Positions 16,001 through 52,028 of a stretch of 64,000 nt of DNA are shown piece after piece. Position numbers and translations under genes: made by a program. Source of the DNA: Macrostomum lignano (Eukaryota); NCBI GenBank assembly GCA_002269645.1, contig NIVC01001330.1:124001-188000 (forward strand), read 5' to 3'. Position 1 is the stretch's first letter. Each line of letters starts with the position of its first letter. The notes below the pieces were generated by a model that saw nothing but the letters and a program-made list of their open reading frames with translations, was not told where the DNA came from and did not search any database.

Positions 16001-19000
16001 AACTGACATCCATCAAAATCGTCTTCGCGAAACAGAAATTCTCTCCATTAAACTGGACTGAATCGAAATTTTCTCCGTAAAAAAGAATCAACTCTCAGGA
16101 TTTAGTGGTTAGGGTTAGGGTTAGGGTTAGGGTTAGAGCTACAACGCAGCAGCGTGTTGAACCAATTGAATTAATTGAATGCGCAACCGATTTCACAGTC
16201 AGTCAGTATCAGTCTCGGTAAAAGTTAACAAAAAGATTGCGCAAACTAAATCAACCCTCCAATACACAGCGACTGACCCCCTTCCAATACGCAGTGGCAA
16301 TTAAAAGTTGAACCCCCCCTCCCACCAACTGTTGGGGGTTGGTCGAACCCCCATTGAACTCCAAAATGAGTACACTGCCGAAAGTTAAAAGTATGGAAAT
16401 CGTTTTTTAAATGCTGTGCTTTTTGTTTTCACATTTAAAGCAAACAACTTATATCCCCGAACTCAGTATTGCAAGATCTTTCCAGTAATATAAGTCTCTC
16501 CTCTGAAAGTTTAAAACTCGAGGAACAGTTAGCGCTTGAAATTTCCTGATTTAAAGCATTAAAGTATCGAGTGTACGTTCACAGCCTGCTAAAGAGGCTC
16601 GCAAGTTTATTCATTAAATTTTACTGCCCAGCAAATACACATGGCTGCCTATTGAATGCCGCCGATAATAAAACCAATTAAATCTCGACACAGTCCTAGC
16701 TATCTCCTTACACTGTACAACTGCTATGTACACTCAGCCCAAGCCCAACCCCCTCCCATTCCGGGGGAATCGTTAAATTTAATTGAACCCCCCAACACGC
16801 GGGGGGGGGGGTTATTTGCATTGAACGCGGAACACGCGCACCCACCACCCCTCAATACACAGCGGCCCGCGGGCGGAGGTTGGGGTGGCTATTTTTACAA
16901 ACTGGCTGCAGCCCCAGGCAGAGTGGCCAAAGAAGGTTATTGAGGGTTAAAAAAACAGTTTTCTGCTTTTTTAGGGATCTTAAAATGTAAAAATGAAAGA
17001 TTAAAATAGCTATAAACCCAATCCGGAAAATTTGCAGTTTTCCCATATAAGTTTCAACGCTGACTTGCCAGTAGTTTAGGAGAAAAATTGCAACACACAA
17101 ACAAACATCGCACCACTTTTAGTATTAAGACGAGGCCAACTCCTCCTCTGGAGGAGAAAGGGGAAGAACTCCCATCACCGGAATTCCATTCCCTGATCTC
17201 CATCAGCTGAATCCCATCATCTAACTGTTCTCCAAATCCATTAAAATCCTCTCCGTGAAACTGAACACCATCGAAATCCTCTCCGCGAAACAGAAATCCT
17301 CTCCGCGAAACTGGACCCAATCGAAATTTTCTCCGTCAAAGAGAACTCAACTTTCAGGATTCATTAGTTAGGGTTAGGGTTAGAGCTGCACAGAGCTGCG
17401 GGTTGAAAGGCGCCGATAAAAATATGAATTAATTGAATCAATTTATTGCGCAACCGTTTTCTCATTCAGTCAGTATCAGGCTCAGGTAAAGTTAACGAAA
17501 TGATTGCGCAATCTAAATCAACCCTCCAATACACAGCGACTGACCCCCTTCCGCAGTGGCAATTGAAAGTTGAACCGCCCCCCCCTCCCACCAACTGTTG
17601 GGGGTTGGTCGAACCCCCATTGAACCCCAAAATGAGTACAATATTTCCAGAAAGTAAAAAGTATGGAAGTTGTTTTCGATCGCTGTGTTTTTTCTTTTCA
17701 CATTTAAAACAAACAACTTATATCCCCGAACTCAGTGTTGCGAGATCTTTCCAGCAATATAAGTATATTCTTTTAAAGTTTAGAACTCGAAGAACAGTTT
17801 GCGTTTGAAATGTCCCGATTTAAAGCATTGAAGTATCGAGTGTACGTTCACCTGCCTGCTAAAAAGGCTCGCAAGTTGATGCATTGAATTTCAGTGTGCA
17901 AAAAATACACCGGGCTGCCTAATTGAAAATCAGAGCACATATCGTTGCGCGATTGTCTATACAGTCAGCCCGTGCGCCAAGGTCCAAGTGTACACACGCC
18001 GCCACTGAGAACGCAAGCACCCCCCACTGGAGAGAAAATACACTGCAGAGATAGGAGAAAGTTATGGCGCAATCACTCAAAATTCATGCAAGTTTTCAGC
18101 TCCAAGCAGAAAGAGGGGACAAATAAGATTATCAAAGGTCAATATTGCAGTTTTTTGCTTTTTTCGGGATCTTAAAATGCAAAAATAAAAAATTGAAATA
18201 GCCCAATGCCATCCTCGGAAAATTTGCAGTTTTCCCATATAAGTTTCGACGCTGACTTGCAAGTCGTCTAGGAGGAGATATGTATCACACAGACAAACAA
18301 CGCACCACTTTTAGTATTTACGAGGCCAACTCCTCCTTCGGAGGAGAAAGGGGAAGAACTCCCATCACCGGAATTCCATTCCCTGAAATATCCATCAACT
18401 GAAATTCCATGTCTTGAACCCTATCTTCCAAATCGTCTCCAAATTCTTTACAAAATCTTTGAAAGACCATAGCTCAAAGACTCTCACGTCTCTCATATCT
18501 CCTCTCTCTTCTATTCGCTATTATCGTGACTCTCTTCTCTCTCCTCTCTCTCATCTCATCTCTACCCCTACTCCCTTATTTATCTCTTCTCCCTCGTCTT
18601 TCGTTTGTACCCTCTCCTGTCTCTTGTCTCCTCTCTTCTCTCATATCTCTCCTCTTCACTTCTGTCTCCTGTCTCCTCTCTTCTCTCTTATCTCTCCCTC
18701 TTCTCTCCTCTCTCATATGTCATCTCTTCTTACTTATTTATCGTCTCTCTTAACCCTCTCTCTCTTCTCTTTTCTCTCCTATCTGCTTCTCATTTCTCAT
18801 ATCTCATATACGCTCTCACACTCTACTTTCTTGTCTCCCATCTTTCTTTCCTCCTTACCACTATCCCCTATCTCTTCTCTTCTCTCTTTTCTATCCTCTC
18901 CATTCTCTCTTCTCTCCTCTCCTTTCTCATTTCATCTTCTCCCCTCTCTTCTCTAATCTCTAATCTCTTCTCTCTTATGTTCTCACTCATCTCTTTTCTC

Positions 19001-22000
19001 ATCGCATCTCTCATTTCTCCCCTCTTTTCTCCTCTCTTCTCTCTCCCCTCCTCTCTCATCTCTCATCCCTCATCTCACTCCTTCTTTCTCCTCTACTCTC
19101 CCCTCTTTTCTATTACCTCTGTACGCTCTTATCCCTCATCTCTATTCTCTCTCCTATCATCTCTCTTGTCTCCCTCTGCTATCTCATATCTCCCCTCTCG
19201 TCTCCTCTCTCCTCTTCTCTTCTCTCTCCTTCGTTCCCGCCTTACTCCCCTCTTTTCTCCCATCTGTCATGTCTAATCTCTCGTCTCATTTCTACTCTGT
19301 TTTCTATCATCTCATCTCTCTTCTCTTTTCATTCTTCTCTTTACTCTCTTCTCTGACTGACTGAAGATGCCAAATCCATCAAAATCCTCTCCGCAAAGCA
19401 GAAATCCTGTCCGTTCAAATGAAAACTATCGAAATCCTCTCCATGAAACTGGACTCCTTCGAAATCCTCTCATTGAAACTTAAATCCATCTAAATCGTCT
19501 CGATAAAACAGAAATCAATCATAAATTATCTCCGCGAAACAGAAATCCTCACTGTGAAGATGAACGTGATCGAAATCCTCTCCGTGAAACTGAACACCAT
19601 CGAAATCCTCTCCACGAAACAGAAATTCTCTCCGTCAAAATTAAAACATTGAAATCGTCTCCGCTAAACTGGACTCAATCGAATTTTTTCCGTCAAACAA
19701 CTCAACTCTCCGGATTCATTGGTTAGGGTTAGGGTTAGGGTTAGGGTTAGAACTATACGCACAGCTTCGTGTTAAAAGGCACTGATAAAAATATTGAACT
19801 AATTGAATCAATTCATTGCGCAACCGATTTCACAGTCAGTCAGTATCAGTCTCAGTTAAAGTTAACAAAAACATTGCGCAATCTAAATCAACCCTCCAAT
19901 ACACAGCAGCAGTGAGAAGTTGAACCCTCCCCCAACTTTATCTATTACGTCTCGCAAAACTGAGTACAATTTTTGCAGAAAGTTAAAAGTATGGACATAG
20001 TTTTTCAAATGCTGTGCATTTTCTTTTCATATTTAAAGCAAACAACTTATATTCCCGAACTCAGCGTTGCAAGATCTTTCCAGCAATATAAGTTTCTCCT
20101 CTCAAAGTTTAAAACTCGAGGAACAGTTAGCGTTTGAAATTTACCGATTTCCCGACTGCTTGCTAGAGAAGCTCGCAATTCATTGAATTTCACTGCCCAG
20201 CTAATACACAGGGCCGATAATAAAACCAATTGAATCTCGGCACAGTTCTATCTTTTTAAAACAGCTATGTACACTCAGTCCAAGCCCAACCCCCTCGTTC
20301 CGGGGAATCATTAAATTTAACTCAACCCCTCAACTAAAATCTTCCTACAATCTTTGCAGGAAGTTAAAAGTATGGAAATCGTTTTTTGAATCCCGCGCTT
20401 TTAGTTTTCATATTTAAAGCAAACAATTTATATCCCCGAACTCAGCGTTGCAAGTTCTTTCCAGCAATATAAGTCTCTCCTCTCAAAGTTAAAAACTCCA
20501 GCAACAGTCTGAGTTTGAAATTTGCCGATTTATAGCATTGCAATATTGAGTGTACGTTCATACGTTCACTGCCTGCTAAAGAGGCCCGCAAGTTTATTCA
20601 TTGAATTTCACTGTCTAACCAATGCACAGGGCAGTCAATTGAAAGGTGCTGATAATAAAACCAATTGAATCTCAGCACAATAGCCATATAATTGCGCTTA
20701 CTTACCCACCACCCCACGAAATACACACAGTTCAATTTTTCAGCCGGGGTCCGCTTGTACACACGCTGCCACTGAGAACGCGACCAACCCCCACTGGCGA
20801 GAAAATACACTACAGAGATAGGAGAAAGTTGTGGCGCAATCGCTCAAAATCATGCAAATTTTCGGCTCCGAGCAGAAAAAGTGTCCAGAGAAGGTTAGGA
20901 AATCAGTTTTCTGCTTTTTTAGGGATCTTAAAATGTGAAAATAAAAAATTGAAATAGCCCACTGCAGTCCCCGGAAAATTTGCAGTTTCCCCATATAAGT
21001 TTCAACGCTGACTTGCAAGTATTCTAGGAGGAGTTATGCAACACACAAACAAACAGACAAACAAACAAACAATCATCGCACCAACTTTAGTATTAGGACG
21101 AGGCCAACTCCTCCTCTGGAGGAGAAAGGGGAAGAACTCCCATCACCGGAATTCCATTCCCTGATCTCTATCAGCTGAATCCCATCATCTAACTGTTCTC
21201 CAAATCCATTAAAATCCTCTCCGTGAAACTGAACACCATCGAAATCCTCTCCGCGAAACAGAAATCCTCTCCGCGAAACTGGACCCAATCGAAATTTTCT
21301 CCGTCAAACAGAACTCAACTCTCAGGATTCATTAGTTAGGGTTAGGGTTAGAGCTGCACAGAGCTGCGTGTTGAAAGGCGCCGATAAAAATATGAATTAA
21401 TTGAATCAATTTATTGCGCAACCGTTTTCTCATTCAGTCAGTATCAGGCTCAGGTAAAGTTAACGAAATGATTGCGCAATCTAAATCAACCGTCCAATAC
21501 ACAGCGACTGACCCCCTTCCGCAGTGGCAATTAAAAGTTGAACCGCCCCCCCCTCCCACCAACTGTTGGGGGGTTGGTCGAACCCCCATTGAACCCCAAA
21601 ATGAGTACAATATTTCCAGAAAGTAAAAAGTATGGAAATTGTTTTCGATCGCTGTGTTTTTTCTTTTCACATTTAAAACAAACAACTTATATCCCCGAAC
21701 TCAGTGTTGCGAGACCTTTCCAGCAATATAAGTATATTCTTTTAAAGTTTAGAACTCGAGGAACAGTTTGCGTTTGAAATGTCCCGATTTAAAGCATTGA
21801 AGTATCGAGTGTACGTTCACCTGCCTGCTAAAAAGGCTCGCAAGTTGATGCATTGAATTTCAGTGTGCAAAAAATACACCGGGCTGCCTAATTGAAAATC
21901 AGAGCACATATCGTTGCGCAATTGTCTATACAGTCAGCCCGTGCGCCAAGGTCCAAGTGTACACACGCCGCCACTGAGAACGCAAGCACCCCCCACTGGA

Positions 22001-36599: not shown

Positions 36600-37614
36600 T
36601 CGTGAAGTAGTTTTTTGTCCGAACCTTTTTGACTAAAATATTTATTCAAAACACTCTCAGAGTTTCACATTCCAGACGCCAGCGATTGGAGCTGCTCCAG
36701 TTTTGCACAGCTCAAATCTAATTAAAATGTAAAGTGTGCTGGGTGGAAATGTTTATTCCGATAATAAATCTGCTGTACTTTTTAATTTTCACTACATAAG
36801 AAATAAATATCTATTCTGAATGAAATCCTACGATGCCCACGCAGAGTTAACTTCTAGTGACTATTTTATTACTTTTGTGAAAGGGAGCGCCAACAGTGAC
36901 TCATTTGCCTAGTGAAAACTAAAAATCTGCATAAGTAGTAGGAAAGTGGTACCCTCCACCGCCATCGCACGGGATTGGCCGGGGCACCCGGCCAATGAGG
37001 GGAGAGGGCGCCCCGAAGACGCCCCCCCGACACCAAACCCACCCCGACCCCCAAACCCACCCCGACCCCAAACCGGGCCCCCTCCTGTCCTGCACCCCGT
37101 GCATCCCATACCAAGGCCCCCTCCTGTCCTGCACCCCATGCATCCCATACCAAGGCCCCCTCCTATCCTACGCCTTGCCCCATCCCATGTAGCAAGGTCC
37201 TTCTATCCTGTACCCTAACCAAAACCAATTCCCCCCTCCTAATTCCTAAACCCAAGTCTTATTACCTGTCTCACTTACCGCCTTTAAAGCTAGCCGAGGC
37301 AAAACCCTCATTCCATGCTTTTGGTTGTACTCTATCTTGCTGTGGCGGGTACAGCGTGAGGTCGTTAGACCTAGAACGCTACTTCTTGGCGGCCAGAGGG
37401 CCGCAAGAAGGTCCCGCCACCTCCTGTTACGTAAATGGCTGAGTGGTCCCCGGAAGGGCTCCTGATTTGCCGAAAGTTCCTGCGAAAGGGCTGCTGTGTG
37501 GGGTTGGATTCGGGGTTCGGATTGGTTATTGCTATGGAGCGGGAGCTGGTCTTACTTATTAACTCCCGTCGTATATAATCTCGCGCACAACCGGAAGGAA
37601 AGCTCACAGTTTTT
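36600..37614 (+). repeat. Left TIR of element 1 (1015 bp; two 39-bp units)
   Basis: Reverse complement of 47646-49291; about 3 differences noticed over the outer ~430 bp. Confidence 0.95.
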
Positions 37615-37618
37615 CAGT
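37572..37618 (+). promoter_or_regulatory. TATA/Inr core promoter in the left TIR upstream of polB
   Basis: TATATAA at 37572-37578, CCGGAAG, and CAGTT/TCAGT ~30-40 nt downstream; polB ATG at 37666. Confidence 0.6.
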
Positions 37619-37665
37619 CCTAGAGTTTTTTAAAGAGTTAAAATTTTGCGTTCTAAATTTTAAAC

Positions 37666-40600
37666 ATGACATTTTGCGAATACTGTAGTCAGACAGTGGC
37701 CGGTGACATATTAGCTCACTACTCAGTGTGCCCAATTATTCCAACTTTATTTTCTGATGAACCGTGTCAATTCCAATTAATTAAAGAAGCATTTTTCGGC
37801 CAGACGCGACTCTATCGGCGGATCGTTGCCGGCCATCCCATCGACGCCCTGGAGTCATCCATTGCTTCAGGCACAGAACTCCTGGCAGATCTGCGTTCGA
37901 AACCAGGCTTTGCCATCAAGGTCCAAATCCGACTCGGCGTGTCTATGCAGCGTTGGGCTGGTGGCAGCTTTGTGGCGCAGAGCACAGCCTGGTTCGCCAG
38001 TCCTTTCAGATGAGGAAGAAGATTTCTTTGTTCGGGAAATCCCATTTATTTTGGAACGACTGAGCAAATACCTTCGCAATGGCAGTTGGTGGACAATTGA
38101 CTCCGTAGATCTTTCCATTGTAAGATATCAGTTGCCTCATGGCTCAGGTATAAGTTCCAACCCATTTGAACTTCCACCAAAGCTAAAGGCTAAAAGGGCA
38201 GTCATCAATGCCTACTCCAATGGGAACGACTGTCTGAAATATGCCGTTCTGTCTGCATTGCACGCTGACCGTGTTAGCAGTGAGAAGCCTTTGCGACGCT
38301 CCACTTTCCGTGAGTGGGAAGACGAACTTTGTTGGGAAAATGTACCTTTCCCTGCCAACGTGAATGACCTAGGCCGAGTGGAGAAGAACAATCCAGGATT
38401 GGCCATCTCGGCCTTCAAATGGACTAACGGCCATGCCCAGAGCTTGCGCCCAGCCCCAGCAGATCTCATTCAGGAATGGCGACCTCACCGATTGATCCTG
38501 CTTCTATTGGTTACCACTGATGCCGGCAACCATTGGTGTGCTATTGCTAACCTAGATCGTCTAATGAACAGTCATGACGCGCATAGATATCGTTGGTGCG
38601 ATCGCTGTCTAGGCAAGTTCCGGACGGTTGAGTCTCTATCCGTTCATAGACGGCGGTGCATTGGCCGTAAGGATAGCATGGAGGAGGTGATGCCAAAGGA
38701 TAAAACACTACGATTCAAGGCATGGCACAAAACACTCTCCCCACCTCATGTCATCTATGCAGATTTTGAAGCAATGATGTCCCCCATAGACGATGAGCTA
38801 GATGGCTGTGCTACCTTTAAGACTGCACACCACCTTCCAGCCGCTGCCGGATTCCTTATTGTCCAAAGAAGTGACGTAGCTGGGCCTCCACTCTCCGAAC
38901 GTCCTATGCAGCTGTTTTCAAAGTCGGATGAGTGCATGATGCACTTCCTACAGGCACTGGAGGCTGTCGCCATTGCAGCATACAAGTGGAATGCGCGACA
39001 TAGTCACTGCCCTGCCATTCGCTCTGTCCAGGAGGAAGAGCAGTTCCAGACTGCCACTCATTGCTGCTTGTGCGAGAAAGTTCTTGATGACGATCGCCAC
39101 TTTCATCATGATCATCTCAATGGCAAGTTTTTGGGTGCTGCATGCCCGTCGTGTAATGAGTCAGCTGTTCTCAAGCGCGACTTCCTTCCAATCTTTTTTC
39201 ACAATTTCCGAGGTTATGATTCACACTTGCTGTGCAGCACGGTGATCGGTCGTATGAAACATTGGGAACTAAGTGTCATTGCACAAACAAAGGAGCGTTA
39301 CATGACTCTAGAGGCCCATATACCTATTGAGTCGGTCTATGACTCATCTAAAGATCGCTTGGTGCCAAAATTCATGCGTCTGCGTTTTCTCGACTCTTTC
39401 CAATTCATGGCGTCGAGTCTTGCTCAATTAGTGCGCAATCTAACCCCGGTAGACTGTCACTACACGTTGGAGATGCAGCAGCGATATCCACTCGCCTCCA
39501 CCGAAGTCCTACTGCGAAAGGGGGTGTTCCCCTATTCCTATGCAACTAGTGATTCGAATTTAGATGACCAACAGCTCCCATCCCAAGAAGCTTTTGCTAA
39601 CGACTTGAACAATGAGCCTTGCAATGATCAGGACTATGCAACTGCCCAGCGTGCCTGGAGAGAGTTTGGATGTAAGACACTGCGCGACTACATGCTTGCA
39701 TACCTTGAAATGGACATTCGTCAGCTCGCCGATGTGTTCGAGGCGTTTCGTCGAATGAGCCTCACTTCGGATGGGCTAGACCCAGTGCATTTTGTAACGA
39801 CGCCGGGAATGTCTTTCGAAGCAGCGCTTAAGTACTGTAAATTGGAGCTTGAATTGCTGCAATGTCCAGAGTTGTACAGCTTATTTGAAGAGGGTACTCG
39901 TGGTGGTATGATATTTGTCAACACACACAGAGCCAAAGCCAACCATCCCGGACTCGGTGAACTGTATGATTCACATCAACCTCAAAGCTATCTTATCCCC
40001 ATCGACGCCAACAACCTCTACGGACACGCATTGTCCACCAAACTGCCATGGTGTGGGTTCCAGGTACTTGACACTGTACCACCAATCAATGAGGTTGAGA
40101 GATGGATCAGGGATGAGTTTGACCCAGAGGGCGATGTTGGATACTTGCTTAAGGTTGATCTCCATTACCCTCCAGAGTTGCACGACAAGACATCAGACTT
40201 TCCCCTTGCTCCGGAGAAGGCGCAGCCTCAATGGGAATGGATGCCGCCGCATCAGCAGCAGCTCTGGGAACTACTTTCTAGTCGGAGGCTCGCTTGTGGA
40301 GGATATAATTCTGGAGGCGACAAGTTGATGTTGACATGCTTTGATAAAACCAGCTATGTTGTACACGCCAGAATCCTACAGTTTTATCTCCGTCTAGGTC
40401 TTAGGCTGCGTACGGTCTACTGCTTAGTTCGCTTTCAGCAATCAGCAGTACTCGAGCCTTACATTCGGCGTAATAGTGAGCGGCGTGCACAAGCCAAAAG
40501 TGAGTTTGAAAAGGATTATAATAAGCTGCTGAACAACTCTCTGTTTGGGAAGACCATGGAGAATGTGCGCAAACGCTTTGACTACCGCCTGGTCAACTCA

Positions 40601-41032
40601 GCAGAGAAGTTGGAGAAGCTCGCAGCTAAACCTAACTTTGAAGATCAAGAGATATTTAATGAGAATCTTGTTCTCGTCCACATGCGCAAGACAACAGTCG
40701 AGCTCAACAAACCGGTGTACATCGGACAGTGTGTCCTTGATAACAGCAAACTCATTATGTACAGCTTGTGGTATGATAAGCTGCTTCCTCTGGTCAATCA
40801 GTTACCATGTGCGAGCCTCAATCTGCTCGGCGGTGACACTGACTCTTTCTTCCTCCACTTAAAGAATGCTGATGGCGAGCGATGGTTTCTGCCTAAACTG
40901 TGCGAAATGGAGCTGCTGGACACCTTTAATTATCCTAAGGACCACTGCTTGTATACTTGCGAACGCAAAGCAAGGTTGCCCGAGGAGAAGAGTTGGAAGG
41001 CAAGTTTTACGAGCCGGAAATGCAGCAAGTGA
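37666..41032 (+). pseudogene. polB: Protein-primed DNA polymerase B (element 1), frameshift at ~38000, C-terminus deleted after ~40978
   Basis: YADFEA, HHDHLNGKFLGAAC..CN, FHNFRGYD, FLDS, DANNLYG, KLLNNSLFGK and GDTDS; the expected G.(F/M)KDE and downstream motifs are missing. Confidence 0.95.
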
Positions 41033-41172
41033 CTGGAAACAAGAAGCTGTGGATCATCGACAAGGTTCTCAACATTAAGAAGCTGAAGAGTGGAAAGATT
41101 CGGTATTTGGTTCAGTGGCGCGATTCAGAAAAACCCAGTTGGATTGACGAAAAAGACTTAAGAAAAATATGA
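40981..41172 (+). pseudogene. C-terminal remnant (chromodomain) of the Polinton integrase
   Basis: GEELEGKFYEPEMQQV followed by IIDKVL...RYLVQW...SWI, the typical tail of Polinton integrases; the DDE core is absent. Confidence 0.85.
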
Positions 41173-41950
41173 AAAGGCAAAGATTTCAGGTAATGTCCGG
41201 CCCCGATGATGACCCGGCCAACTTTACTTCTGAGCTGCTGCATCCTGTGCTGCTGGATTCTGCTTTGGATTATGAGTTGGCTCTGCTTGGAATCAGTTTT
41301 ATCAACTGCATCTACACCATCTCTCATCCATTGTCGCTATATTATCAGCTTGAGGGTTCAATGCAATGTGCTGAAATTCCAGCTGGGCGCTACAATGACT
41401 TGAATGAGCTGATTGAAGCAGTAAATACCCTACTGATTGTAAAAGATTTTGATGAGTCTGGAATTGGCGAAACACCTATAAATGTGCATCTAATTAAATC
41501 TACCCTTGATTCAGTTAGCCATCATGTATACTATCAAATGGCTGGGATCTGTGGGAGATTTATCTTTCCAGAAAACAGCCAGCTGGGGAAAATCTTTGGT
41601 GCTGCGCAGACAACCTATAGCGAGCAGGCAAGATGCTTTGAACGACCTGGCATGAACCCGGCCTGGAATACGGATTTGCTGCTTGTTGAGTGCGATCAGA
41701 TTAGCCCGCGCTGTATTGGAAACTGTTTACTCCAGCACTGCAGACTTTGAATATTGGTGGTCTTTTGCAGGGTCACCGGTCGGAATTCATCTATAAGAAT
41801 AAGCTGTTCTTCCCAATAGCAGCAAACCACCGCTTAACACACATGCAAATACGGCTACGACCGATCAACTGCATCGAATCTATCCGATTACTCTTCGGAC
41901 CCACAGTCTTGACTTTTGAGCTGCGTGAGTCATGGACATTCGACAAGTGA
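41169..41950 (+). pseudogene. Minor capsid protein (penton, single jelly roll), one -1 frameshift at ~41727
   Basis: ANFTSEL..V.L....YELAL, GRYNDL, LLVECDQI...IG, F.PI..N.L..MQIRL...GPTVLTFELR. Confidence 0.8.
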
Positions 41951-42120
41951 CCGAGTTTTATCGAGGCAGTTGCTTCAAACTTCCTCATGGGCACGGATAT
42001 CCCACATTGCTGCTATCTCAACTGCCCCCTGAGACTCATGAAAATGCAGTTCTCCTTTCCCGCATACCAACTCCATCGCAGAAAAAACATAAGAAAACGC
42101 CAAAAATCAAACCAAAGTAG
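41932..42120 (+). CDS. Small basic core-protein-like ORF (possibly degenerate)
   Basis: FYRGS...HGHG motif and Lys-rich tail between penton and major capsid, as in many Polintons. Confidence 0.45.
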   Translation: MDIRQVTEFYRGSCFKLPHGHGYPTLLLSQLPPETHENAVLLSRIPTPSQKKHKKTPKIKPK

Positions 42121-42194
42121 AGCAAGCCAGTGCCCACAAAAAAGCGCAAGATATCATACAAAACAGTCAACCGAGTGCTCGATTCATTCTCATA

Positions 42195-43448
42195 ATGTAT
42201 CGGACAAATCCACGGCTCAACCTGTTTGAGCCAAAGACGCATGAAATCGGAGTGGATAGGTCTCACTTCATGGACTTTCATCCCATAGGCAGTCTCACGA
42301 CTCCTGATGCACCGATTGAATTCGACTGCCACGCCTCCTCTGAGGACTACACCGATCTGCACGCCACAGTGCTGCAAGTCACTTGTCGGATAACTCGTGT
42401 GATAAACAATGCAGAGCTGACTAATGAAGATGATGCCCATGTCGGACTATCGAATCTCCCGCTTGCCAGCCTGTTTCGTGATGTGACTGTAAAACTCAAC
42501 CAGCGGGTTGTGAGTGGTGGGGACCAGCTCTACCCATATCGAGCAATGCTTCAAGTGCTGACCAGCAGCAATGCCAACCAGCTTCAAGAACTGGCGGCCG
42601 CAGGTTATTATCCAGACACCGCTGGAGAGAGTGACACCATTGGGGAGCAAAATCATGGATTCACAAATCGTGCGAGATTGCATGAGGCTTCTGCTGTTGT
42701 GCAATATGCCGGCCCGTTGTTTTCAGACATTTTCTCAATCCGGCAGTATCTGCTAAACCAAATCAGCCTGCAGGTCAAATTGACCCGGCATTGCAGCGCT
42801 TTTTCATTGATGGTACCCAATAATGGTGTTCAATACCGTGTTGAAGTCGACAATGCTGTTCTGCTTTTGAGGCGTCTCCGAGTAAACCCAACAGTAGCTC
42901 TCGCACATAAACAGGGGCTCTCACAACGTAATACTCTCTACCACTGATAGAAGAGAGCTTCAGACATTCACATTTTCTGTTGGGACAAGAAACAAGAGTC
43001 TCGATTCAATCACGCATTTGTGCTCCTTGGAATGGTCAGCCAGACAGCTTTCAATGGATCTCTGCACCACAACCCGTTTTGGTTCCAAGCATTTGGATTG
43101 AATAGTTTAAGCCTGTTTGTCAATGGAGAGCCAATTACTGGGCAGCCCATAGAACCACAGCAGCAGCACTCATCCGAATTTTTGCAGTTTGCCCGCAGTC
43201 TCGGTGGAAACTATTGCATGAGCTTTGATGAATATCGAGATAGTGCCTATCTGCTTGCGTTTGACCTTAGTCCAAGTGGCGATGAAGTAGGCAGCTGGTT
43301 TGGTCATAGGCAGGGTCAACTACGACTGGATATTCGCTTTTCCAACGCTCTCGCACAGCCAGTCACACTCATCTGCTTGTGCGTGTATGACTCATGCATG
43401 GAAATCACTAAAGAGAGGGATGTGCTGCTGGATTATCGCAGAGCATGA
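42195..43448 (+). pseudogene. Major capsid protein (double jelly roll), disrupted at ~42945-43020
   Basis: RLNLFEP, PIEF, DYTDL, SLFRDV.VKLN, YPYRA, GYYPD, GPLFSDIF, AFNG....NPF.FQ.F, AFDLSP, G.LRLDIRF. Confidence 0.9.
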
Positions 43449-43918
43449 ATTCCGAAGAGTTGGAAACGTTCATTTCTCGCTGCCCCACACCTGTGCGGGA
43501 TGCCTATTGCGGAATTTTTACAGTTGGAACAGTGACACCATTTTTCGATTCAACCTGCCGACCCTGCTGCTTCATTTTATATGAGCCATGAAATGATGAG
43601 TGCGGTCACTGGATTGCTGGAGTAGTAACCAGTAAAGTGCATTGTGAAATTTTCAACTCTTTGGGAGGCTTGAGTAAAAATATGAAGAGCTGGTTAAAGA
43701 AAACTAAACCGACGCGGATGGTGCTACAATGAAATTCGGTCCCTGTTCAGCCCAGTTCGTCAACTCTATGCGGCTGGTATTGCATTTTTTACTTGATCCA
43801 TCGACTGCATAAGAGAATGTCGTATAATGCCTTGTTCATCAAGGTTTTGCACCCGGCAGCTGTGGCTCAAAACGATGCAATCATACCCAGACTCAAAAAT
43901 CAGTTGCAAGGTGTTTGA
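43445..43918 (+). pseudogene. Adenain-like cysteine protease with two in-frame TGA stops
   Basis: Translated by hand: GHWIA...EIFNSLG...VQPSSSTLCGWYCIFYL; its ATG overlaps the capsid stop (ATGA). Confidence 0.88.
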
Positions 43919-44534
43919 TTCCAGACTGCGGATGGGCGGCTGCATGATGGTTTCGGGCCCTTCTCGAGCGGGAAAATCAACAATCTGTTTGCGGATGCTG
44001 TCCCAACGACTGCTTCTGTTCGACCAACCTCCCAAGCGGATGATTTGGTATCACGGATGCCCGCAGCCGGAACTCCACGCGACTCTGCAGCGGCTAGGAG
44101 TGCAACTATGTGAAGGATTATCGAATTTGGATTTGCAGCCCCATGACCTGATTGTGATTGACGATTTACTGGATGAAGCAGCTGCAAGTCGAGAGCTACG
44201 ACATCTGTTCACCCGTAAGGCCCACCACAAGCCCTGCTTTGTCATTCTCATCACGCAAAATCTATTTTTCAAAGGCAGAGAGTGGCGCACAATTAGCATA
44301 AATTGCACCTACATTGTGTTGTTCAACAACCCGAGAGACACCTCTGCGGTCCAAGCTTTAAGTCAGCAATGCTTTCCCAAACGGCGCACTCTGCTAGTAG
44401 AACTGATGGATCGATTGGTGCGAGATGGAGATCAGCGCTATCTGCTGCTTGATTTTCACCCCGCTTCACCCCATGAACTGCGCCTGAGAGCCAATTTTCT
44501 CCCCGATGAGGCCCCGCAGCGAGTTTATCTATAA
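43900..44534 (+). CDS. FtsK/A32-like DNA packaging ATPase
   Basis: Walker A GPSRAGKS, Walker B IVIDD, FTRKAHH, ILITQN, YIVLFNNPRD, YLLLDF; exact start uncertain. Confidence 0.93.
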
Positions 44535-44564
44535 GAATGGCTCAGTCTCTGCACTGAGTTAAAC

Positions 44565-44897
44565 ATGAATAAACACATTGCACTAATAACTGTCTTTTGT
44601 GAGGGCACGATATCCTTGCGTCGCTGCATACTTACCTATACAAATAAAAGCACCATTTGCTTTTTGGTCGAGTGTATTATCAACTTACTAGCAGGAAAAG
44701 TTGGCTGTGAAGATAGCTTGAAGCGGAGACTCAGGCGATATCGAAATACTCTCCGGCTTGTTGCACAAAGCAAAAGTGTGAAAGAGGCTCGGCGCAATCT
44801 CTCACACCCGCATATCCTTCGTTGTCTTCCTCTGATTCTCACCTGTATAAAAAGACATGTACAAGGAAATGATACTGGTACCCCGGTTGCAGTATGA
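44565..44897 (+). CDS. Small basic conserved Polinton protein following the ATPase
   Basis: LRRCIL...TICFLVECIINLLAGKV...LKRRL pattern recalled from Polinton ORFs. Confidence 0.6.
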   Translation: MNKHIALITVFCEGTISLRRCILTYTNKSTICFLVECIINLLAGKVGCEDSLKRRLRRYRNTLRLVAQSKSVKEARRNLSHPHILRCLPLILTCIKRHVQGNDTGTPVAV

Positions 44898-45450
44898 GGC
44901 ACTTGTGAATCAGAGGGGCATGGAGACAGTCTGTGAACCCGAGCTAGAGGCGGAAAAACAGTTGCGCAAGATTACGGACGAGCGTTGCGTGCAGCAGCTG
45001 CAGGCAAGTGCGACCCAAGAACAGTCTCCAATTCACAAAGAACCGCAGTGGAAGGAGGTGTTATATCTGACGGTGAATCAGAAATGGCATCATCGTCTGC
45101 AGGCATTGATTAGCTTCATAACCGTAAAGTGCAAGTCGATTAGCATAGATGATACGTATGAAGTTTCTGTCAATGGTAAACCGTTGTACAACTCAAATAT
45201 CGTGGACCTGCTGCATTTCATAGTTAAAGATACGTACTCTAAGTACCTTCAGCCACCGAATGGGATTAATGAGTTTGTTACGTGTCTTCAAGAAAACCAC
45301 GTGCCTCTGTCTGCAGTTGGTCTGAACACTACAAAATTGCTGGAAAAGCCTCGGGAAGAAAAGTCCAGTCCTAAAAAACCTCGACTGCAAGGCTATAAGA
45401 AGACTCAGTCTCAGAAAGGATACGGCAAGTGGATCAAGTGGCCAAGATGA
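44857..45450 (+). CDS. Conserved Polinton protein (PZ-like)
   Basis: EMILVP start; EVSVNGKPLYNSNIVDLL and PNGINEFV..L.EN.VP motifs. Confidence 0.65.
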   Translation: MYKEMILVPRLQYEALVNQRGMETVCEPELEAEKQLRKITDERCVQQLQASATQEQSPIHKEPQWKEVLYLTVNQKWHHRLQALISFITVKCKSISIDDTYEVSVNGKPLYNSNIVDLLHFIVKDTYSKYLQPPNGINEFVTCLQENHVPLSAVGLNTTKLLEKPREEKSSPKKPRLQGYKKTQSQKGYGKWIKWPR

Positions 45451-45910
45451 TTTTCATTGATTTTGAAGGATTTCCGCACCTCTACAAAACAGAGGACTTT
45501 GTGATTAAGGAAATTGCATGGGTTGAGTTTGCATGCGGTCAAACGACGGCTCATTACTATTGCTTTGATCGAGGACAGCGACGAACCTGCTACTGGCTCA
45601 CCAATAAGCGGCACGGTCTAGACTGGGACAGGAGTGGGTTCCGACCCTACTCTTGTCTCTGGAGCGATATCTCTCACTTGCAAGGCCCGATATTTAGCAA
45701 GGGGGATGTCAAGTGCCAGTTCCTGTCGCGTCTGCTGCTGCAGCCTGTCTACGACCTCGCACACCTGGCCTTTCCGAGTGCCTCAAAGTACGTGCTGCCC
45801 TGCGCCCTGGCCAAAGTGGCGCTGTACGCTGATTGGCTGCGGCCTCGCGGCTACGGGTCTATAAAAGTAGCGATCTGCAGCAGGCACTGGCGTTTCTCTC
45901 GATTGTCTAA
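45447..45910 (+). CDS. DEDD-like exonuclease-fold accessory protein; reads through into the TBP-like frame in this sequence
   Basis: FIDFEGF...FVIKEIA, HGLDW..G, IFSKG..K, C.L pattern; the natural stop probably lies at 45864 or 45910 in another frame. Confidence 0.6.
45860..45867 (+). promoter_or_regulatory. TATA box upstream of the TBP-like ATG
   Basis: TATAAAAG starting 53 nt before ATG 45913. Confidence 0.5.
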
Positions 45911-45912
45911 AG

Positions 45913-46511
45913 ATGGTCGCAACAATTCGCGTGACAAACATCGTGACAGGAGCCGACCTGGCGACCCGGTGGGTCTGCCACAACTAGCGAATTTCCTGAC
46001 TCTTCATCTGCCTCAGTATCACACAATCCGCCATCGCCTGGTTCATCCTCGAACACTGGCAGTGGTTATGAAGAGCGAGCAGCATCGAGTAACCGCGCTG
46101 GTGTATCCGACCGGACAGGTGTCTGTCTGTGGAGCCAAAAGCATGGAGGAAGCTCTCGCAGAGACGGAGAAGATTGTGAGGCTGTGTGCGGACTTCTTGC
46201 GATTGACCAGTCTGCCCCAGATTCGCATCAAGACTATTACCTCTGTGACGGCCTTTCCCGCGGGTCCGCATCCACTCCGGTTGGGGGAAGTCAAGTCTAA
46301 ATGGCCGCATCGGGCCACCTACGAGCCGGAAATGTTTAACGGACTTGTGCTCAAGTTTAATGCCTCTGTAAAGTTGATTTTGTTTCATTCGTATCGTTGT
46401 ATAATAGCAGGTGCTCGCAGCGTGGTTGAGGCTCAGACTGCAGCTGATGCCCTCTCCCGCATTTTGCTACCAGATCAAGCATCCGAACCTACTTTGCTGG
46501 ACTCTGACTGA
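45913..46511 (+). CDS. TATA-binding protein (TBP)-like protein, ~199 aa, one -1 frameshift at 45960
   Basis: Two TBP half-repeats: IRVTNIVTGADL(G)DPVGLPQLA...VTALVYPTGQVSVCGAKSMEEA and IRIKTITS...PLRL...YEPEMFNGLVLK...LILFHSYRCIIAGARS. Confidence 0.85.
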
Positions 46512-46937
46512 GCTCCTCTACGGCATAACAGTAGTAGTGAGATCTGCCTATGCACTGAGTAATAATAATAATAATAATAATATTTTCCTATAACTTTACT
46601 TCTGTATTTTTTGTGTACAAAAGATAAGAAAAAATAAACGCGAATGCGACTATAGTGTTTGTACAACAATGCTTACGAAAATGAAATGTTTTTTAGTTTA
46701 TTTTATTGGCAGGTCCATGGATTGCAAAGCATAAAATTTCATGTTAAAAGCTCGTATTAGCACAAAAAAGTTTACGAAGAATGGAAGGGCAGTATTAAGG
46801 CCCGTCGCGTGTATTTACAAAACAGTATTATCGCCAGGAATCAAAGCATGATGGGGCAATATTATGGCCAGTATTGACAAAGCAATATATACAACAGTGC
46901 ATGATCAGTACTATGGTTCAAAACTATTAAAAAAAAG

Positions 46938-47633
46938 TTAATTGACGAAATGACCTGTTGTCGCTTCATGCATTGCGCGTCGCTTCATTGGTAGCTGGTG
47001 GAATGAAGGCTGTTGGTTTTTCTCAGCTGTTGGTGGCTCTTCCAGAGTTTCGGATGTAAATCTCTTTCTAAATTCAGCCTGAACTGCCTGGAAGGCCTCC
47101 CAGTGGTCGTCCCACTCTGCCGGCTGCCTGTCAGGTACTTGCATCAGTTGGTCGAGTGAAAGCCTTGCTGCCCATGCTGCACCCTCTTCAGGCTCCGTAG
47201 GGTGATATCCCATCCACCTTGGATCGCCGATCGGTGGCTCGACCGGAGGCTCTCGCTTGTCAATTTTGTCTAGGACCCATTGCTTTTGAGCCCAGACTTC
47301 GCGCCAAAGTGTTGTAGGAAGCGGTAAGGCGTGCCTTAGGTGCACCGGCGGTCCGAGTACAGTTGGAAGGCGCCAGAGTGTAATTACGCCATTTTGCACA
47401 ACCACTTGCCTGTTGCCACCCAGAAGGCATCGCGCATCGATGCACTTTCTTGCAAACTCTTCCAGTCGTTACTTCAGGCTGCCCAAGTGGCAAAACTGGT
47501 GGACGGTGAGCTCCATGCCAGGCAGACCTGGTCGATACTCTTCATCAAATTTGTACCACTTTCTGATGCTGATGCACTTCGAGTGCGACCTGACGCCGAT
47601 TCAAAATCTGTTCGATAATGTATTGAAGTTCAT
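46938..47633 (-). pseudogene. Tandem PC4/Sub1-like ssDNA-binding protein, 231 codons with two in-frame stops
   Basis: Hand translation from ATG 47633: LSNRF*IGV..KCISIRKWYKFDEEYRPGLPGMELTVHQF..L, then LGGNRQVVV..GVITLWR...ALPL..TLW; stops at 47603-47601 and 47471-47469. Confidence 0.65.
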
Positions 47634-47645
47634 TTGTTCACTGTC

Positions 47646-49291
47646 AAAAACTGTGCGCTTTCCTTCCGGCTGTGCGCGAGATTATATACGACGGGAGTTG
47701 ATAAGTAACACCAGCTCCCGCTCCATAGCAATAACCAATCCGAACCCCGAATCCAACCCCACACAACAACCCTCTGGCAAGAACTCTCGGCAAATCAGGA
47801 GACCTTCCGGGGAACCACTCAGCCATTTAGAAATCAGCTCCCGTTACATAGCAATAACCAATCCGAACCCCGAATCCAACCCCACACAGCAGCCCTTTCG
47901 CAGGAACTTTCGGCAAATCAGGAGCCCTTCCGGGGACCACTCAGCCATTTACGTAACAGGAGGTGGCGGGACCTTCTTGCGGCCCTCTGGCCGCCAAGAA
48001 GTAGCGTTCTAGGTCTAACGACCTCACGCTGTACCCGCCACAGCAAGATAGAGTACAACCAAAAGCATGGAATGAGGGTTTTGCCTCGGCTAGCTTTAAA
48101 GGCGGTAAGTGAGACAGGTAATAAGACTTGGGTTTAGGAATTAGGAGGGGGGAATTGGTTTTGGTTAGGGTACAGGATAGAAGGACCTTGCTACATGGGA
48201 TGGGGCAAGGCGTAGGATAGGAGGGGGCCTTGGTATGGGATGCATGGGGTGCAGGACAGGAGGGGGCCTTGGTATGGGATGCACGGGGTGCAGGACAGGA
48301 GGGGGCCTTGGTATGGGATGCACGGGGTGCAGGACAGGAGGGGGTCTTGGTATGGGATGCACGGGGTGCAGGACAGGAGGGGGCCTTGGTATGGGATGCA
48401 CGGGGTGCAGGACAGGAGGGGGCCTTGGTATGGGATGCACGGGGTGCAGGACAGGAGGGGGTCTTGGTATGGGATGCACGGGGTGCAGGACAGGAGGGGG
48501 TCTTGGTATGGGATGCATGGGGTGCAGGACAGGAGGGGGTCTTGGTATGGGATGCACGGGGTGCAGGACAGGAGGGGGTCTTGGTATGGGATGCACGGGG
48601 TGCAGGACAGGAGGGGGTCTTGGTATGGGATGCACGGGGTGCAGGACAGGAGGGGGTCTTGGTATGGGATGCACGGGGTGCAGGACAGGAGGGGGTCTTG
48701 GTATGGGATGCACGGGGTGCAGGACAGGAGGGGGTCTTGGTATGGGATGCATGGGGTGCAGGACAGGAGGGGGTCTTGGTATGGGATGCACGGGGTGCAG
48801 GACAGGAGGGGGCCCGGTTTGGGGTCGGGGTGGGTTTGGGGGTCGGGGTGGGTTTGGTGTCGGGGGGGCGTCTTCGGGGGCGCCCTCTCCCCTCATTGGC
48901 CGGGTGCCCCGGCCAATCCCGTGCGATGGCGGTGGAGGGTACCACTTTCCTACTACTTATGCAGATTTTTAGTTTTCACTAGGCAAATGAGTCACTGTTG
49001 GCGCTCCCTTTCACAAAAGTAATAAAATAGTCACTAGAAGTTAACTCTGCGTGGGCATCGTAGGATTTCATTCAGAATAGATATTTATTTCTTATGTAGT
49101 GAAAATTAAAAAATACAGCAGATTTATTATCGGAATAAACATTTTCACCCAGCACACTTTACATTTTAATTAGATTTGAGCTGTGCAAAACTGGAGCAGC
49201 TCCAATCGCTGGCGTCTGGAATGTGAAACTCTGAGAGTGTTTTGAATAAATATTTTAGTCAAAAAGGTTCGGACAAAAAACTACTTCACGA
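47646..49291 (-). repeat. Right TIR of element 1 (1646 bp; fifteen 39-bp units and a ~123-bp duplication)
   Basis: Inverted copy of the left TIR; TATATAA at 47688-47682 points at the PC4-like ATG. Confidence 0.95.
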
Positions 49292-50089
49292 ATCTGTTAG
49301 CCAACCAGACAACTGAAGTAGACGGACGCTGCGCTCGATTTTCTCAGCACGGATGTCCGCCTCGCACATTCGTCCGCATGTACGCAAGGCTCTGCAGAGT
49401 CCCGTTTGCTGCAAAAGACTGGCTTCGTAACTCTTGGATGAGCCGACGAAAATTTACAACAGAGATCGGTCAGCTCGGCTGAGCCGGAAGAAGAGCGTGC
49501 GGCGCCGTCTGCAAGAAGACAGAAAGCGGCGAGTTTGGTGGCGATCTGTTGCTCCGAGAGCTGCACGACGTGCCCAAATTACAGGCTGAGCTGACTTTAT
49601 TAATGTGCCTCTGCTTGACTGCACGTTGCGCAATCAAATTAGAGCATCATAGACGCATTTTACTTTGATTGACTGCCGGCGATTTTTTCAACGGCAGACA
49701 GGCAGTTCGAGTCTTCAGTAAAGCAAAGAATTTATCTGAATTAAAATCAAGTCAATTATTTACCTGACATTCATTACTATCTCACCGGTAGATTCGATGT
49801 TTTACTAAAGTACTTTAATATTTTTACATTTAGAGCTTTTTATATCGAATTTAAAGGCTGTAAACATTATAACGGTTGTGAATTGTTGGAAGATGTCACG
49901 TTTTTGAGCGCTTTTAGCCTCAGTATAGTATGTGTAAATAATCTGTAAATAAACTAATAGGATTGCTGCAGAACTGCTTAGGGATAAGTGGCCATTTGCT
50001 CAAGGATTGTGTAAAACTGCTGAAAGACCAGTGTGCTTCACTGAATCGGTGCTCATTTTCTAAATGTTTCACTCTCCCACTGGGTCATA

Positions 50090-51642
50090 TTTTGTGATTG
50101 TCTTGCTTTCTCACTCATGTTTTGTGATTCTCTCACTTTCTCACTCATATTTTGTGATTGTCTCACTTTCTCGCTCATGTTTTGTGATTGTATAGCTTGC
50201 TCACTCATGTTTTGTGATTGTCTCACTTTCTCGCTCATGTTTTGTGATTGTATAGCTTGCTCACTCATGTTTTGTGATTGTCTCACTTTCTCGCTCATGT
50301 TTTGTGATTGTATAGCTTGCTCACTCATGTTTTGTGATTGTCTCACTTTCTCGCTCATGTTTTGTGATTGTATAGCTTGCTCACTCATGTTTTGTGATTG
50401 TCTCACTTTCTCGCTCATGTTTTGTGATTGTGTCACTTTCTCACTCATATTATGTGATTGTCTCACTTTCTCACTCACATTTTGTTATTGTCTCACTTTC
50501 TCACTCATATTCCGTGACTGTCTCACTTTCTCACTCATATTATGTGATTGTCTCACTTTCTCACTCACATTTTGTTATTGTCTCACTTTCTCACTCATAT
50601 TCCGTGACTGTCTCACTTTCTCACTCATATCATGTGATTGTCTCACTTTCTCGCTCATGTTTTGTGATTGTATCACTTTCTCACTCATGTTTTGTGATTG
50701 TCTCACTTTCTCGCTCATGTTTTGTGATTGTATCACTTTCTCACTCATGTTTTGTGATTGTCTCACTTTCTCGCTCATGTTTTGTGATTGTATCACTTTC
50801 TCACTCATGTTTTGTGATTGTCTCACTTTCTCGCTCATGTTTTGTGATTGTCTCACTTTCTCACTCATGTTTTGTGATTGCCTCACTTTCTCGCTCATGT
50901 TTTGTGATTGCCTCACTTTCTCGCTCATGTTTTGTGATTGCCTCACTTTCTCACTCATATTCCGTGACTGTCTCACTTTCTCACTCATATCATGTGATTG
51001 TCTCACTTTCTCGCTCATGTTTTGTGATTGTATCACTTTCTCACTCATGTTTTGTGATTGCCTCACTTTCTCACTCATGTTTTGTGATTGTCTCACTTTC
51101 TCGCTCATGTTTTGTGATTGTATCACTTTCTCACTCATGTTTTGTGATTGCCTCACTTTCTCACTCATATTTTGTGATTGTCTCACTTTCTCGCTCATGT
51201 TTTGTGATTGTATCACTTTCTCACTCATGTTTTGTGATTGTCTCACTTTCTCGCTCATGTTTTGTGATTGTATCACTTTCTCACTCATGTTTTGTGATTG
51301 TCTCACTTTCTCGCTCATGTTTTGTGATTGTCTCACTTTCTCACTCATGTTTTGTGATTGCCTCACTTTCTCGCTCATGTTTTGTGATTGCCTCACTTTC
51401 TCGCTCATGTTTTGTGATTGCCTCACTTTCTCACTCATATTCCGTGACTGTCTCACTTTCTCACTCATATCATGTGATTGTCTCACTTTCTCGCTCATGT
51501 TTTGTGATTGTATCACTTTCTCACTCATGTTTTGTGATTGCCTCACTTTCTCACTCATGTTTTGTGATTGTCTCACTTTCTCGCTCATGTTTTGTGATTG
51601 CCTCACTTTCTCGCTCATGTTTTGTGATTGTCTAGCTTGCTC
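50090..51642. repeat. 30-bp satellite (TTTTGTGATTGTCTCACTTTCTCGCTCATG), ~52 copies
   Basis: Read directly; the 10-aa periodic ORFs are artefacts. Confidence 0.96.
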
Positions 51643-52028
51643 AAAAATTTTAATTCGTTTTCGCTTCATTCTTGCAGCATTTCTAGGGTTCCTAAGCTTT
51701 ACGTGATAAGCAGTCGACTTCGGTATTTCGTGCTGATAAAAACTATTCTAGGGTAACAATTTTTAGTGTATCATATTTAATGACATATTTGAATATCTAC
51801 TCATCAACATTGAAAAGTTAATTGCCACTCTATGCGCCAGCAAGCAGTTTTTACTGGACTATTCTGAAATAAAAGATGCAAGAAAACTGATCTGGGTAGC
51901 TTTAATCCGTCCAACACTCGCACACCGCTCCCCACACTTCATTCCTCAACTCAAGTCTGCCGCGGTGTAGCTGAGTTGCATCACTCCCAAGTAGAAGGCA
52001 TGAGGGGGCTTCTGGGACAAAATTTTTC

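Follow-up and report, generated by a model that had tools for sequence, protein, structure and literature searches.

PC4-like domains bind single-stranded DNA (ssDNA), several of them melt duplex DNA, and phage T5 uses one in replication (accessible text of PMC7549692). The residues of PC4 which contact DNA are named in the available part of PMC4350104 as R70, F77, R86, W89, R100 and K101. Other protein-primed replicons encode single-stranded-DNA-binding proteins (SSBs), including the adenovirus DBP, which is not an OB-fold protein (accessible sections of PMC8276246). Of the replication of Polintons little besides the polymerase is known, and in vitro a polymerase of the Polinton type displaces strands with no need of an SSB (available text of PMC3511435). 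PC4/MoSub1-like genes are already labelled in adintovirus maps. In the machine-read Supplementary Fig. S2 of PMC8502044 (Starrett et al. 2021; consulted in part), one row reads 'ITR PolB Integrase ... MAEL MOSUB ITR' and two rows bear the label SSDBP. A term search of the main text of this paper, whose supplements were partly readable, gave 0 occurrences of MOSUB or PC4. A literature search that combined PC4 with Polinton, Maverick and similar terms gave no relevant paper; one paper with both PC4 and polinton uses PC4 in another sense. Term searches of the main texts of PMC11071308, 10.1101/2023.08.22.554363 and 10.1101/2024.03.25.586562 found no mention of PC4, and neither SSB nor PC4 was found by term search in PMC11071308 and the nematode Polinton preprint. 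This kind of gene is thus labelled in adintoviruses but, as far as our searches reach, uncharacterised.

We analysed a window of 64,000 nucleotides of Macrostomum lignano DNA (assembly GCA_002269645.1, contig NIVC01001330.1, positions 124,001 to 188,000, forward strand). It carries a decayed Maverick/Polinton at 36934-48957, approximately 12 kb long, with terminal inverted repeats (TIRs) that have AGTAGT ends. The left TIR (36934-37614) starts at AGTAGT, and its TATA-like box at 37572 points into the gene of the protein-primed DNA polymerase B (pPolB; 37666-41032, plus strand; PF03175, E=3e-11), the 5' part of which is in a separate frame. Comparison with the copies on C114 and C1978 shows that the C-terminal end of pPolB and most of the integrase were lost in a deletion of about 2.2 kb. 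The polymerase is truncated in the window, and a lineage-B copy (see below) has it as an ORF of 1200 codons. A C-terminal chromodomain remnant of the integrase is left (40939-41172, plus strand; PF00385); in other copies its place is held by integrase-like ORFs of 294-356 codons, which we take to be integrases from their motifs. The virion module follows at 41148-45450 on the plus strand, with several genes broken. It comprises putative minor and major capsid genes, a putative protease remnant, a putative packaging ATPase (43797-44534, plus strand; P-loop matches) and two accessory ORFs. The capsid and protease ORFs gave no Pfam match, and we assume their names from Polinton gene order and motifs. 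Next comes an ORF which, from its motif, we presume to be a DEDD-type nuclease, and then a TBP-like gene (45399-46511 together, plus strand; PF00352, E=1.6e-17 for TBP). These ORFs are convergent with the PC4-like gene, and AATAAA signals lie between them at 46633 (plus strand) and 46707 (minus strand). A native nuclease-TBP fusion was rejected, because a single frame spans the two only where copies have decayed, and in other copies they are distinct ORFs that overlap. The right TIR (47646-48957) has its AGTAGT terminus at 48957 and contains a 39-bp tandem array. Its TATA-like box (47688-47682, minus strand) is situated about 55 nt upstream of the ATG of the PC4-like gene.

Exact 6-bp target-site duplications (TSDs) were present in 9 of 12 other mapped copies and none was found at the window insertion. 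The flank at 48958-49291 (334 bp) is an inverted copy (99.4%) of 36600-36933, and these outer flanks are closer to each other than are the TIR arms (about 96-98%). The inverted flanks without a TSD may reflect either a later rearrangement or an assembly artefact. Outside the element, the window has long tandem arrays with units of 15, 23 and 30 bp and interstitial TTAGGG runs (296-1900, 7700-13000, 9044-9114, 16107-16141, 19721-19750 and 49945-51700).

The PC4-like gene occupies 47633-46938 on the minus strand and has 231 codons, from the ATG at 47633 to the stop at 46938. Codons 1-62 (47448-47633) form repeat 1, a PC4 beta-beta-beta-beta-alpha unit; codons 63-125 (47259-47447) form repeat 2, a degenerate PC4 unit; codons 126-231 (46941-47258) form a net acidic C-terminal tail with a presumed function. 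In the window the frame is interrupted by premature stops at codon 11 (47603-47601) and codon 55 (47471-47469). The preliminary description, which had read through both stops, reported the motif ISIRKWY...EYRPG..G.EL...QF..L in frame from the ATG, and we found it there. With X at the stops, the frame matched PF02229 at residues 19-50 (E=1.7e-4) with 21.5 bits, which is below the curated Pfam cut-off of 25 bits. The scores for the gene of the window's lineage (21.5-23 bits) all stay under this cut-off, and lineage-B copies exceed it; PF02229 was matched by 11 of 11 members of alignment A1 (best E 5.9e-9). Searched against the PDB, the single window sequence had MoSub1 as its best sequence match (E=0.07), and a profile made from 8 natural copies retrieved human PC4 with E=1.5e-6.

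A DNA search of the M. lignano genome identified 30 loci at 90-100% identity, including the window. Among these closest loci a stop at codon 11 or 55 occurs in the window only (1 of 30). As the two stops also differ in kind, read-through and an alternative genetic code were rejected. Stop-free copies do exist: among the 29 close copies, 7 have an intact frame from end to end and 21 have one that runs through both repeats. A break at some point is present in 22 of these 29, as in the window copy. Several copies at different sites (L013-L016, L019-L021, L023-L025) share frameshifts at codons 124 and 138, which delete the tail and spare both repeats. The term 'cryptic' used in the preliminary description therefore fits the window copy, which is a decayed insertion, and does not hold as a trait of the gene, since other copies are open. 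Lack of a PC4 profile match, or of conservation of the frame upstream of 47405, had been named beforehand as counting against such a gene; the match was obtained and the frame is conserved. The window copy is a pseudogene of a genuine gene, an ordinary dead insertion.

A protein search of the same genome gave at least 150 matches (150 scored of 254 candidates), many of them with open frames. Among them are families of approximately 30% identity whose open frames measure about 245-265 codons; these we placed in lineage B. Between subfamilies, dN/dS for repeat 1 was 0.09-0.11 in the 2 of 8 pairs that could be measured, the others being saturated; it was 0.10-0.22 for repeat 2 (4 of 8 pairs measurable) and 0.19-0.31 for the tail (7 of 8 pairs measurable). 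Both repeats are under purifying selection between subfamilies. For two close pairs the dN/dS of repeat 1 was 1.46, with too few changes (5 vs 1); this is as expected from decay after insertion and is not supportive of selection.

Outside this genome, 224 cluster representatives matched at E<=0.001. Among the 38 representatives that we examined, about a dozen had the element-type signature; these homologues (P0004-P0013 and others) are on short contigs of 0.7-2.6 kb, on which no Maverick context is visible. In most of the other examined representatives the canonical PC4 repeat occurs one to four times; one of them bears the name of an algal KIWI coactivator. A search of viral contigs with alignment A2 gave no valid element-type homologue. 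One match among its candidates (L051, E=8e-5) was rejected, as it is within an unrelated ORF of a tailed-phage contig. The same alignment gave 120 pattern matches in metagenome contigs, 0 of them confirmed, and the putative major capsid protein had no match in viral contigs. The leads of an Atlas search with the PC4 protein were all below 0.9, though PC4-labelled.

Each repeat was compared with 333 canonical PC4 units by HHalign. The probability was 99.2% for repeat 1 and 92.9% for repeat 2 (score 33.8, 61 columns; best of 60 column-shuffled controls, 14.2). The weaker second repeat that had been proposed is therefore real, although its single-sequence HMM scores were at noise level and the direct profile comparison of repeat 1 with repeat 2 was weak (18.5%). 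We also obtained an AlphaFold2 model of a natural open copy (30 sequences; mean pLDDT 82.7). It predicts the beta4-alpha unit twice, as beta4-alpha-linker-beta4-alpha in one chain, then a helical patch and a disordered end. Its best structural match was Pur-alpha I-II (3k44; VIA Z 11.1, 118 aligned, rmsd 3.8), and further VIA matches were MRP1 (Z 7.8) and Whirly (Z 6.2); the PC4 homologue of phage T5 (4bg7) gave Z 5.2. Repeat 1 of the model superposes on human PC4 (6ycs) with an rmsd of 1.2 Å over 63 residues. The fold is thus predicted to be a single-chain PC4-like domain, helix-swapped, in which the repeats pair within the chain. Type II proteins have a single repeat and form a symmetric homodimer; here there are two repeats per chain and the predicted pairing is intrachain. 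Profile alignment and predicted fold both support the tandem PC4 pseudo-dimer of the preliminary description. Its novelty is lower than was implied, as single-chain PC4-like proteins are a described class and cellular proteins with 2-4 canonical repeats exist, besides the genes already labelled in adintovirus maps.

The residues which contact DNA in PC4 are kept unequally. In repeat 1, R86 is kept in 29 of 29 rows, the W89 position is aromatic (Y/F) in 29 of 29, and the equivalents of G99 and K97 are also retained. The R100-K101 pair is replaced by hydrophobic-Pro, with Pro at K101 in 29 of 29 rows, and the F77 position is aromatic in 15 of 30 rows, the window's lineage not being among them. 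In repeat 2, where the alignment register is less sure, the W89 aromatic is absent, its place being taken by Pro in 21 of 29 rows; the helix Trp is kept, as are two near-invariant Arg. In most rows the two-repeat domain has a net positive charge and the tail a net negative one. A small helical module is predicted in the tail (about 148-196), which also has NLS-like clusters of basic residues. With the R100-K101 contacts lost and F77 kept in part, ssDNA binding may be weaker than in PC4 or different from it. As judged from the sequences, the asymmetry of the repeats is new, the gene kind itself having been labelled in adintoviruses before.

The position of the gene is constant. In the window's lineage (A), 12 of 12 other mapped copies end with the PC4 gene pointing inward from the terminus, and polymerase sequence is at the far end in 11 of the same 12. 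In lineage B, which is approximately 30% identical, PC4 is the first gene after the TIR, with pPolB encoded on the other strand at the opposite end. PC4 is thus a fixed terminal gene of two Maverick/Polinton lineages, opposite pPolB. In the 3 elements with the window-type polymerase, pPolB and PC4 are each preceded by the same TATA-like motif, located in the TIR. In lineage B the TATA-like box is inside the element, beyond a short TIR, so that a shared TIR promoter is not applicable. In four runs that we guess to be RNA, the contigs extend over the genes and the TIR without distinction and are uninformative on expression. A TBP-like gene was found in 14 of 14 PC4-bearing elements tested, and the A and B versions are approximately 35% identical.

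The central block, from integrase to TBP, is inverted relative to the terminal genes between lineages A and B; despite this, pPolB and PC4 keep opposite ends and point inward in both. Among 12 copies of the window's lineage, 8 have a left end from a sister lineage (5' part of the polymerase about 49% identical) and most of pPolB deleted. This chimeric family (L031, L092-L103, L108-L111), about 10-12 kb long, keeps virion genes, TBP and PC4 and is likely non-autonomous. There are also palindromic derivatives, in which the PC4 end is duplicated and inverted over 0.7-6 kb at about 99% identity (L033-L034 on C862, L049-L050 on C664, L090-L091 on C3189, L087-L088 on C592); as they were found by PC4 search, no end bias can be claimed. 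The palindromic copy on C862 has a 6-bp TSD, which means that such forms were integrated.

A search with the ATPase revealed a third lineage, C, in the same genome, with elements of 17-21 kb and an ATPase 35-39% identical to that of the window. Of the 10 stretches examined, 5 are bounded by AGTAGT-type TIRs and 7 keep the polymerase end. With the canonical profile, PC4 was found in 0 of the 5 TIR-bounded elements (best 4.3 bits), and none of the 10 stretches had a credible match. The element-PC4 profile gave weak matches in two elements of lineage C (10.3 and 12.5 bits), which run antisense to the ATPase gene and which we attribute to chance. All 7 elements that keep the polymerase end begin with a two-exon gene (7/7). 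This gene (L112:183-1363, plus strand; also L115, L117, L118, L121, L122 and L130) has a GT-AG intron whose position is identical in 6 of 6 copies inspected. After the gene come a divergent TBP-like gene, an ORF resembling nucleoside kinases, and pPolB.

Exon 2 of this gene resembles viral DUF5871/DUF2738 clusters (Atlas 0.91-0.94; the families are on 10-29% of cluster members). DUF2738 and DUF5871 we take to be T7 gp2.5-like OB-fold SSBs. Both are called unknown in the accessible text of 10.1101/2022.07.28.501842. A partial model of exon 2, which covers a half-domain (mean pLDDT 49.9, about 80 over residues 51-110), matched phage ssDNA-binding domains best (Foldseek E=2.4e-3; none under 1e-3), and searches of the exons against Pfam, PHROGs and PDB sequences gave no meaningful match. 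Taken together, the first gene of lineage C is likely an OB-fold ssDNA-binding gene. With lineage-C profiles made from 6 sequences, the two-exon gene was found in 0 of 14 PC4-bearing elements (best 6.9 bits), which had been picked by their PC4 gene and several of which are internally deleted. TBP-like genes are present in all three lineages, with PC4 or with the OB-type gene; in lineage C the TBP profile gave E values from 2.5e-6 to 0.017 in 5 of the 7 elements keeping that end. The apparent exchange of PC4 and an OB-type SSB between sister lineages, a single independent contrast of lineages A and B with C, is new here.

Because PC4 and the OB-type SSB appear to be exchanged while TBP stays constant, a replication role is favoured over that of a coactivator. 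We estimate a probability of roughly 60% that the product of the PC4 gene is the replication SSB of the element. The TATA-like box in or next to the TIR would drive early expression of PC4 together with pPolB. The polymerase would copy the excised linear element from one end, and the PC4 protein would coat the displaced strand, protect the ssDNA and help to melt the duplex ahead of the polymerase. Contact with the strand would be made by repeat 1, which retains the aromatic/Arg face. The main part of repeat 2 would be to complete the helix-swapped fold, which would give a one-sided binder of a single strand, in contrast to the two-sided grip of PC4 on a bubble. The acidic tail with its basic clusters may serve nuclear import and contacts with partners. 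That other protein-primed replicons encode SSBs, and that a Polinton-type polymerase displaces strands, speaks for this role; the ability of that polymerase to do so free of SSB counts against it.

The preliminary description had named both an ssDNA-binding protein for replication and a transcription coactivator. The apparent swap favours the former, and the latter now seems less likely. A cofactor like cellular PC4/Sub1 would act with the TBP of the element to open or stabilise promoters with TATA-like boxes for host RNA polymerase II. Such a protein would be in keeping with a repeat 1 nearest in sequence to PC4/Sub1, with the acidic tail and its basic clusters, and with the TBP-like gene in 14 of 14 PC4-bearing elements, which in the window's lineage is the adjoining, convergent gene. 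Against it, TBP-like genes persist in lineage C without PC4, and in lineage B the PC4 gene is approximately 7 kb from TBP. The Fig. S2 row with MOSUB likewise has no TBP label, a weak point given the machine-read layout of a partly readable supplement. The host, moreover, has its own canonical single-repeat PC4, with identical scores at three loci (C37, C98, C1344; L072:2299-2769), and repeat 2 seems to have lost the aromatic of the second channel, which PC4 uses for the opposite strand of the bubble. We consider a coactivator unlikely on these grounds. Less probable still is that the protein binds single strands for some other use. It might bind or anneal RNA, as Pur-alpha and MRP1/2 do, protect excision or integration intermediates against host repair, or be packaged as a core protein. 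In favour, the best whole-domain fold matches are Pur-alpha and MRP1, which are RNA binders (accessible text of PMC7549692), the lineage-B PC4 gene directly precedes the integrase, and the binding loop of repeat 1 is altered by the change to G-x-P-G. Against these uses, the sequence derives from PC4 and not from Pur or MRP, to which it is 8-13% identical, the apparent exchange is with an ssDNA-binding-type gene, and the PC4 gene is located outside the virion block, in an early terminal position.

The broken state of the window copy and of 22 of 29 close copies could also be expected of a functionless passenger, a recently captured and decaying fragment of host PC4. We regard this as very improbable, and from the sequence comparisons it appears largely refuted already. 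The repeats show purifying selection between subfamilies, and the genome holds at least 150 matches, many with open frames in lineages only about 30% identical. In addition, a tree of repeat 1 separated the 29 element-type rows from host PC4 and 70 canonical units with SH-aLRT 93; as a quick tree of 71 columns with 70 of 253 thinned canonical units it is not conclusive, and it makes a recent capture from the host unlikely.

Beyond this element, we tentatively propose, with slightly less than even confidence, that Mavericks/Polintons have an overlooked dedicated SSB. It would be interchangeable between a single-chain PC4 pseudo-dimer and a spliced OB-fold of the T7/giant-virus type, both in one genome. 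The PC4 form would be the counterpart of adenovirus DBP, arrived at by duplication of a transcription-cofactor domain with one binding channel disabled. If the PC4 gene does encode an SSB, it would fill a gap in the replication machinery of these widespread elements, which have links to adenoviruses and giant viruses. It would also provide a small soluble protein for in vitro work. The asymmetric repeats are, besides, a natural experiment on the division of work between the two binding channels of PC4.

The closest viral counterpart by fold was 'MOSUB' of a Branchiostoma lancelet adintovirus (A0A5H3CIS2; Foldseek E=1.3e-4, 183 columns, 16% identity); a protein of Drosophila-associated adintovirus 2 also matched (E=8.7e-3). 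In the part of Fig. S2 that could be machine-read, MOSUB is beside the ITR with PolB at the other end, like the window gene, which here follows the order nuclease-(TBP)-PC4-TIR. Orthology with MOSUB is putative, suggested by the fold match and by the order of labels, and which map bears the label is uncertain in the machine-read figure.

Human PC4 and fungal Sub1 (PF02229; 1pcf, 6ycs, 4bhm) are type II homodimers, and repeat 1 of the element protein is homologous to them. The element protein differs in being a single chain with unequal repeats and a replaced R100-K101 pair, in the absence of the N-terminal regulatory region and in its C-terminal tail of approximately 100 residues. It shares its one-chain topology with Pur-alpha I-II, Whirly and MRP1/2, which are type I proteins (Janowski and Niessing, accessible text of PMC7549692), but is 8-13% identical to the Pur-alpha, Whirly and MRP proteins and has no sequence match to them. 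The element protein is probably a separate duplication of the PC4 unit, apart from Pur/Whirly/MRP. Tandem units in one chain are also found in proteins where the canonical PC4 repeat occurs 2-4 times (e.g. 'KIWI' of Coccomyxa, BDA42711.1), which we infer to be cellular, except for the one informatively named. In contrast to the element type, these are symmetric, with the canonical motif in all repeats, and are placed on the opposite side of the tree. The PC4 homologue of phage T5, a homodimer in recombination-dependent replication, is likewise unlike the single-chain element protein. With the SSBs of protein-primed replicons (adenovirus DBP, the phi29 and Bam35 SSBs, PRD1 P12), described in the available parts of PMC8276246 and PMC7549692, the element protein would share a job, to coat displaced ssDNA or aid unwinding, whereas DBP and the phi29-type SSB have folds different from its own.
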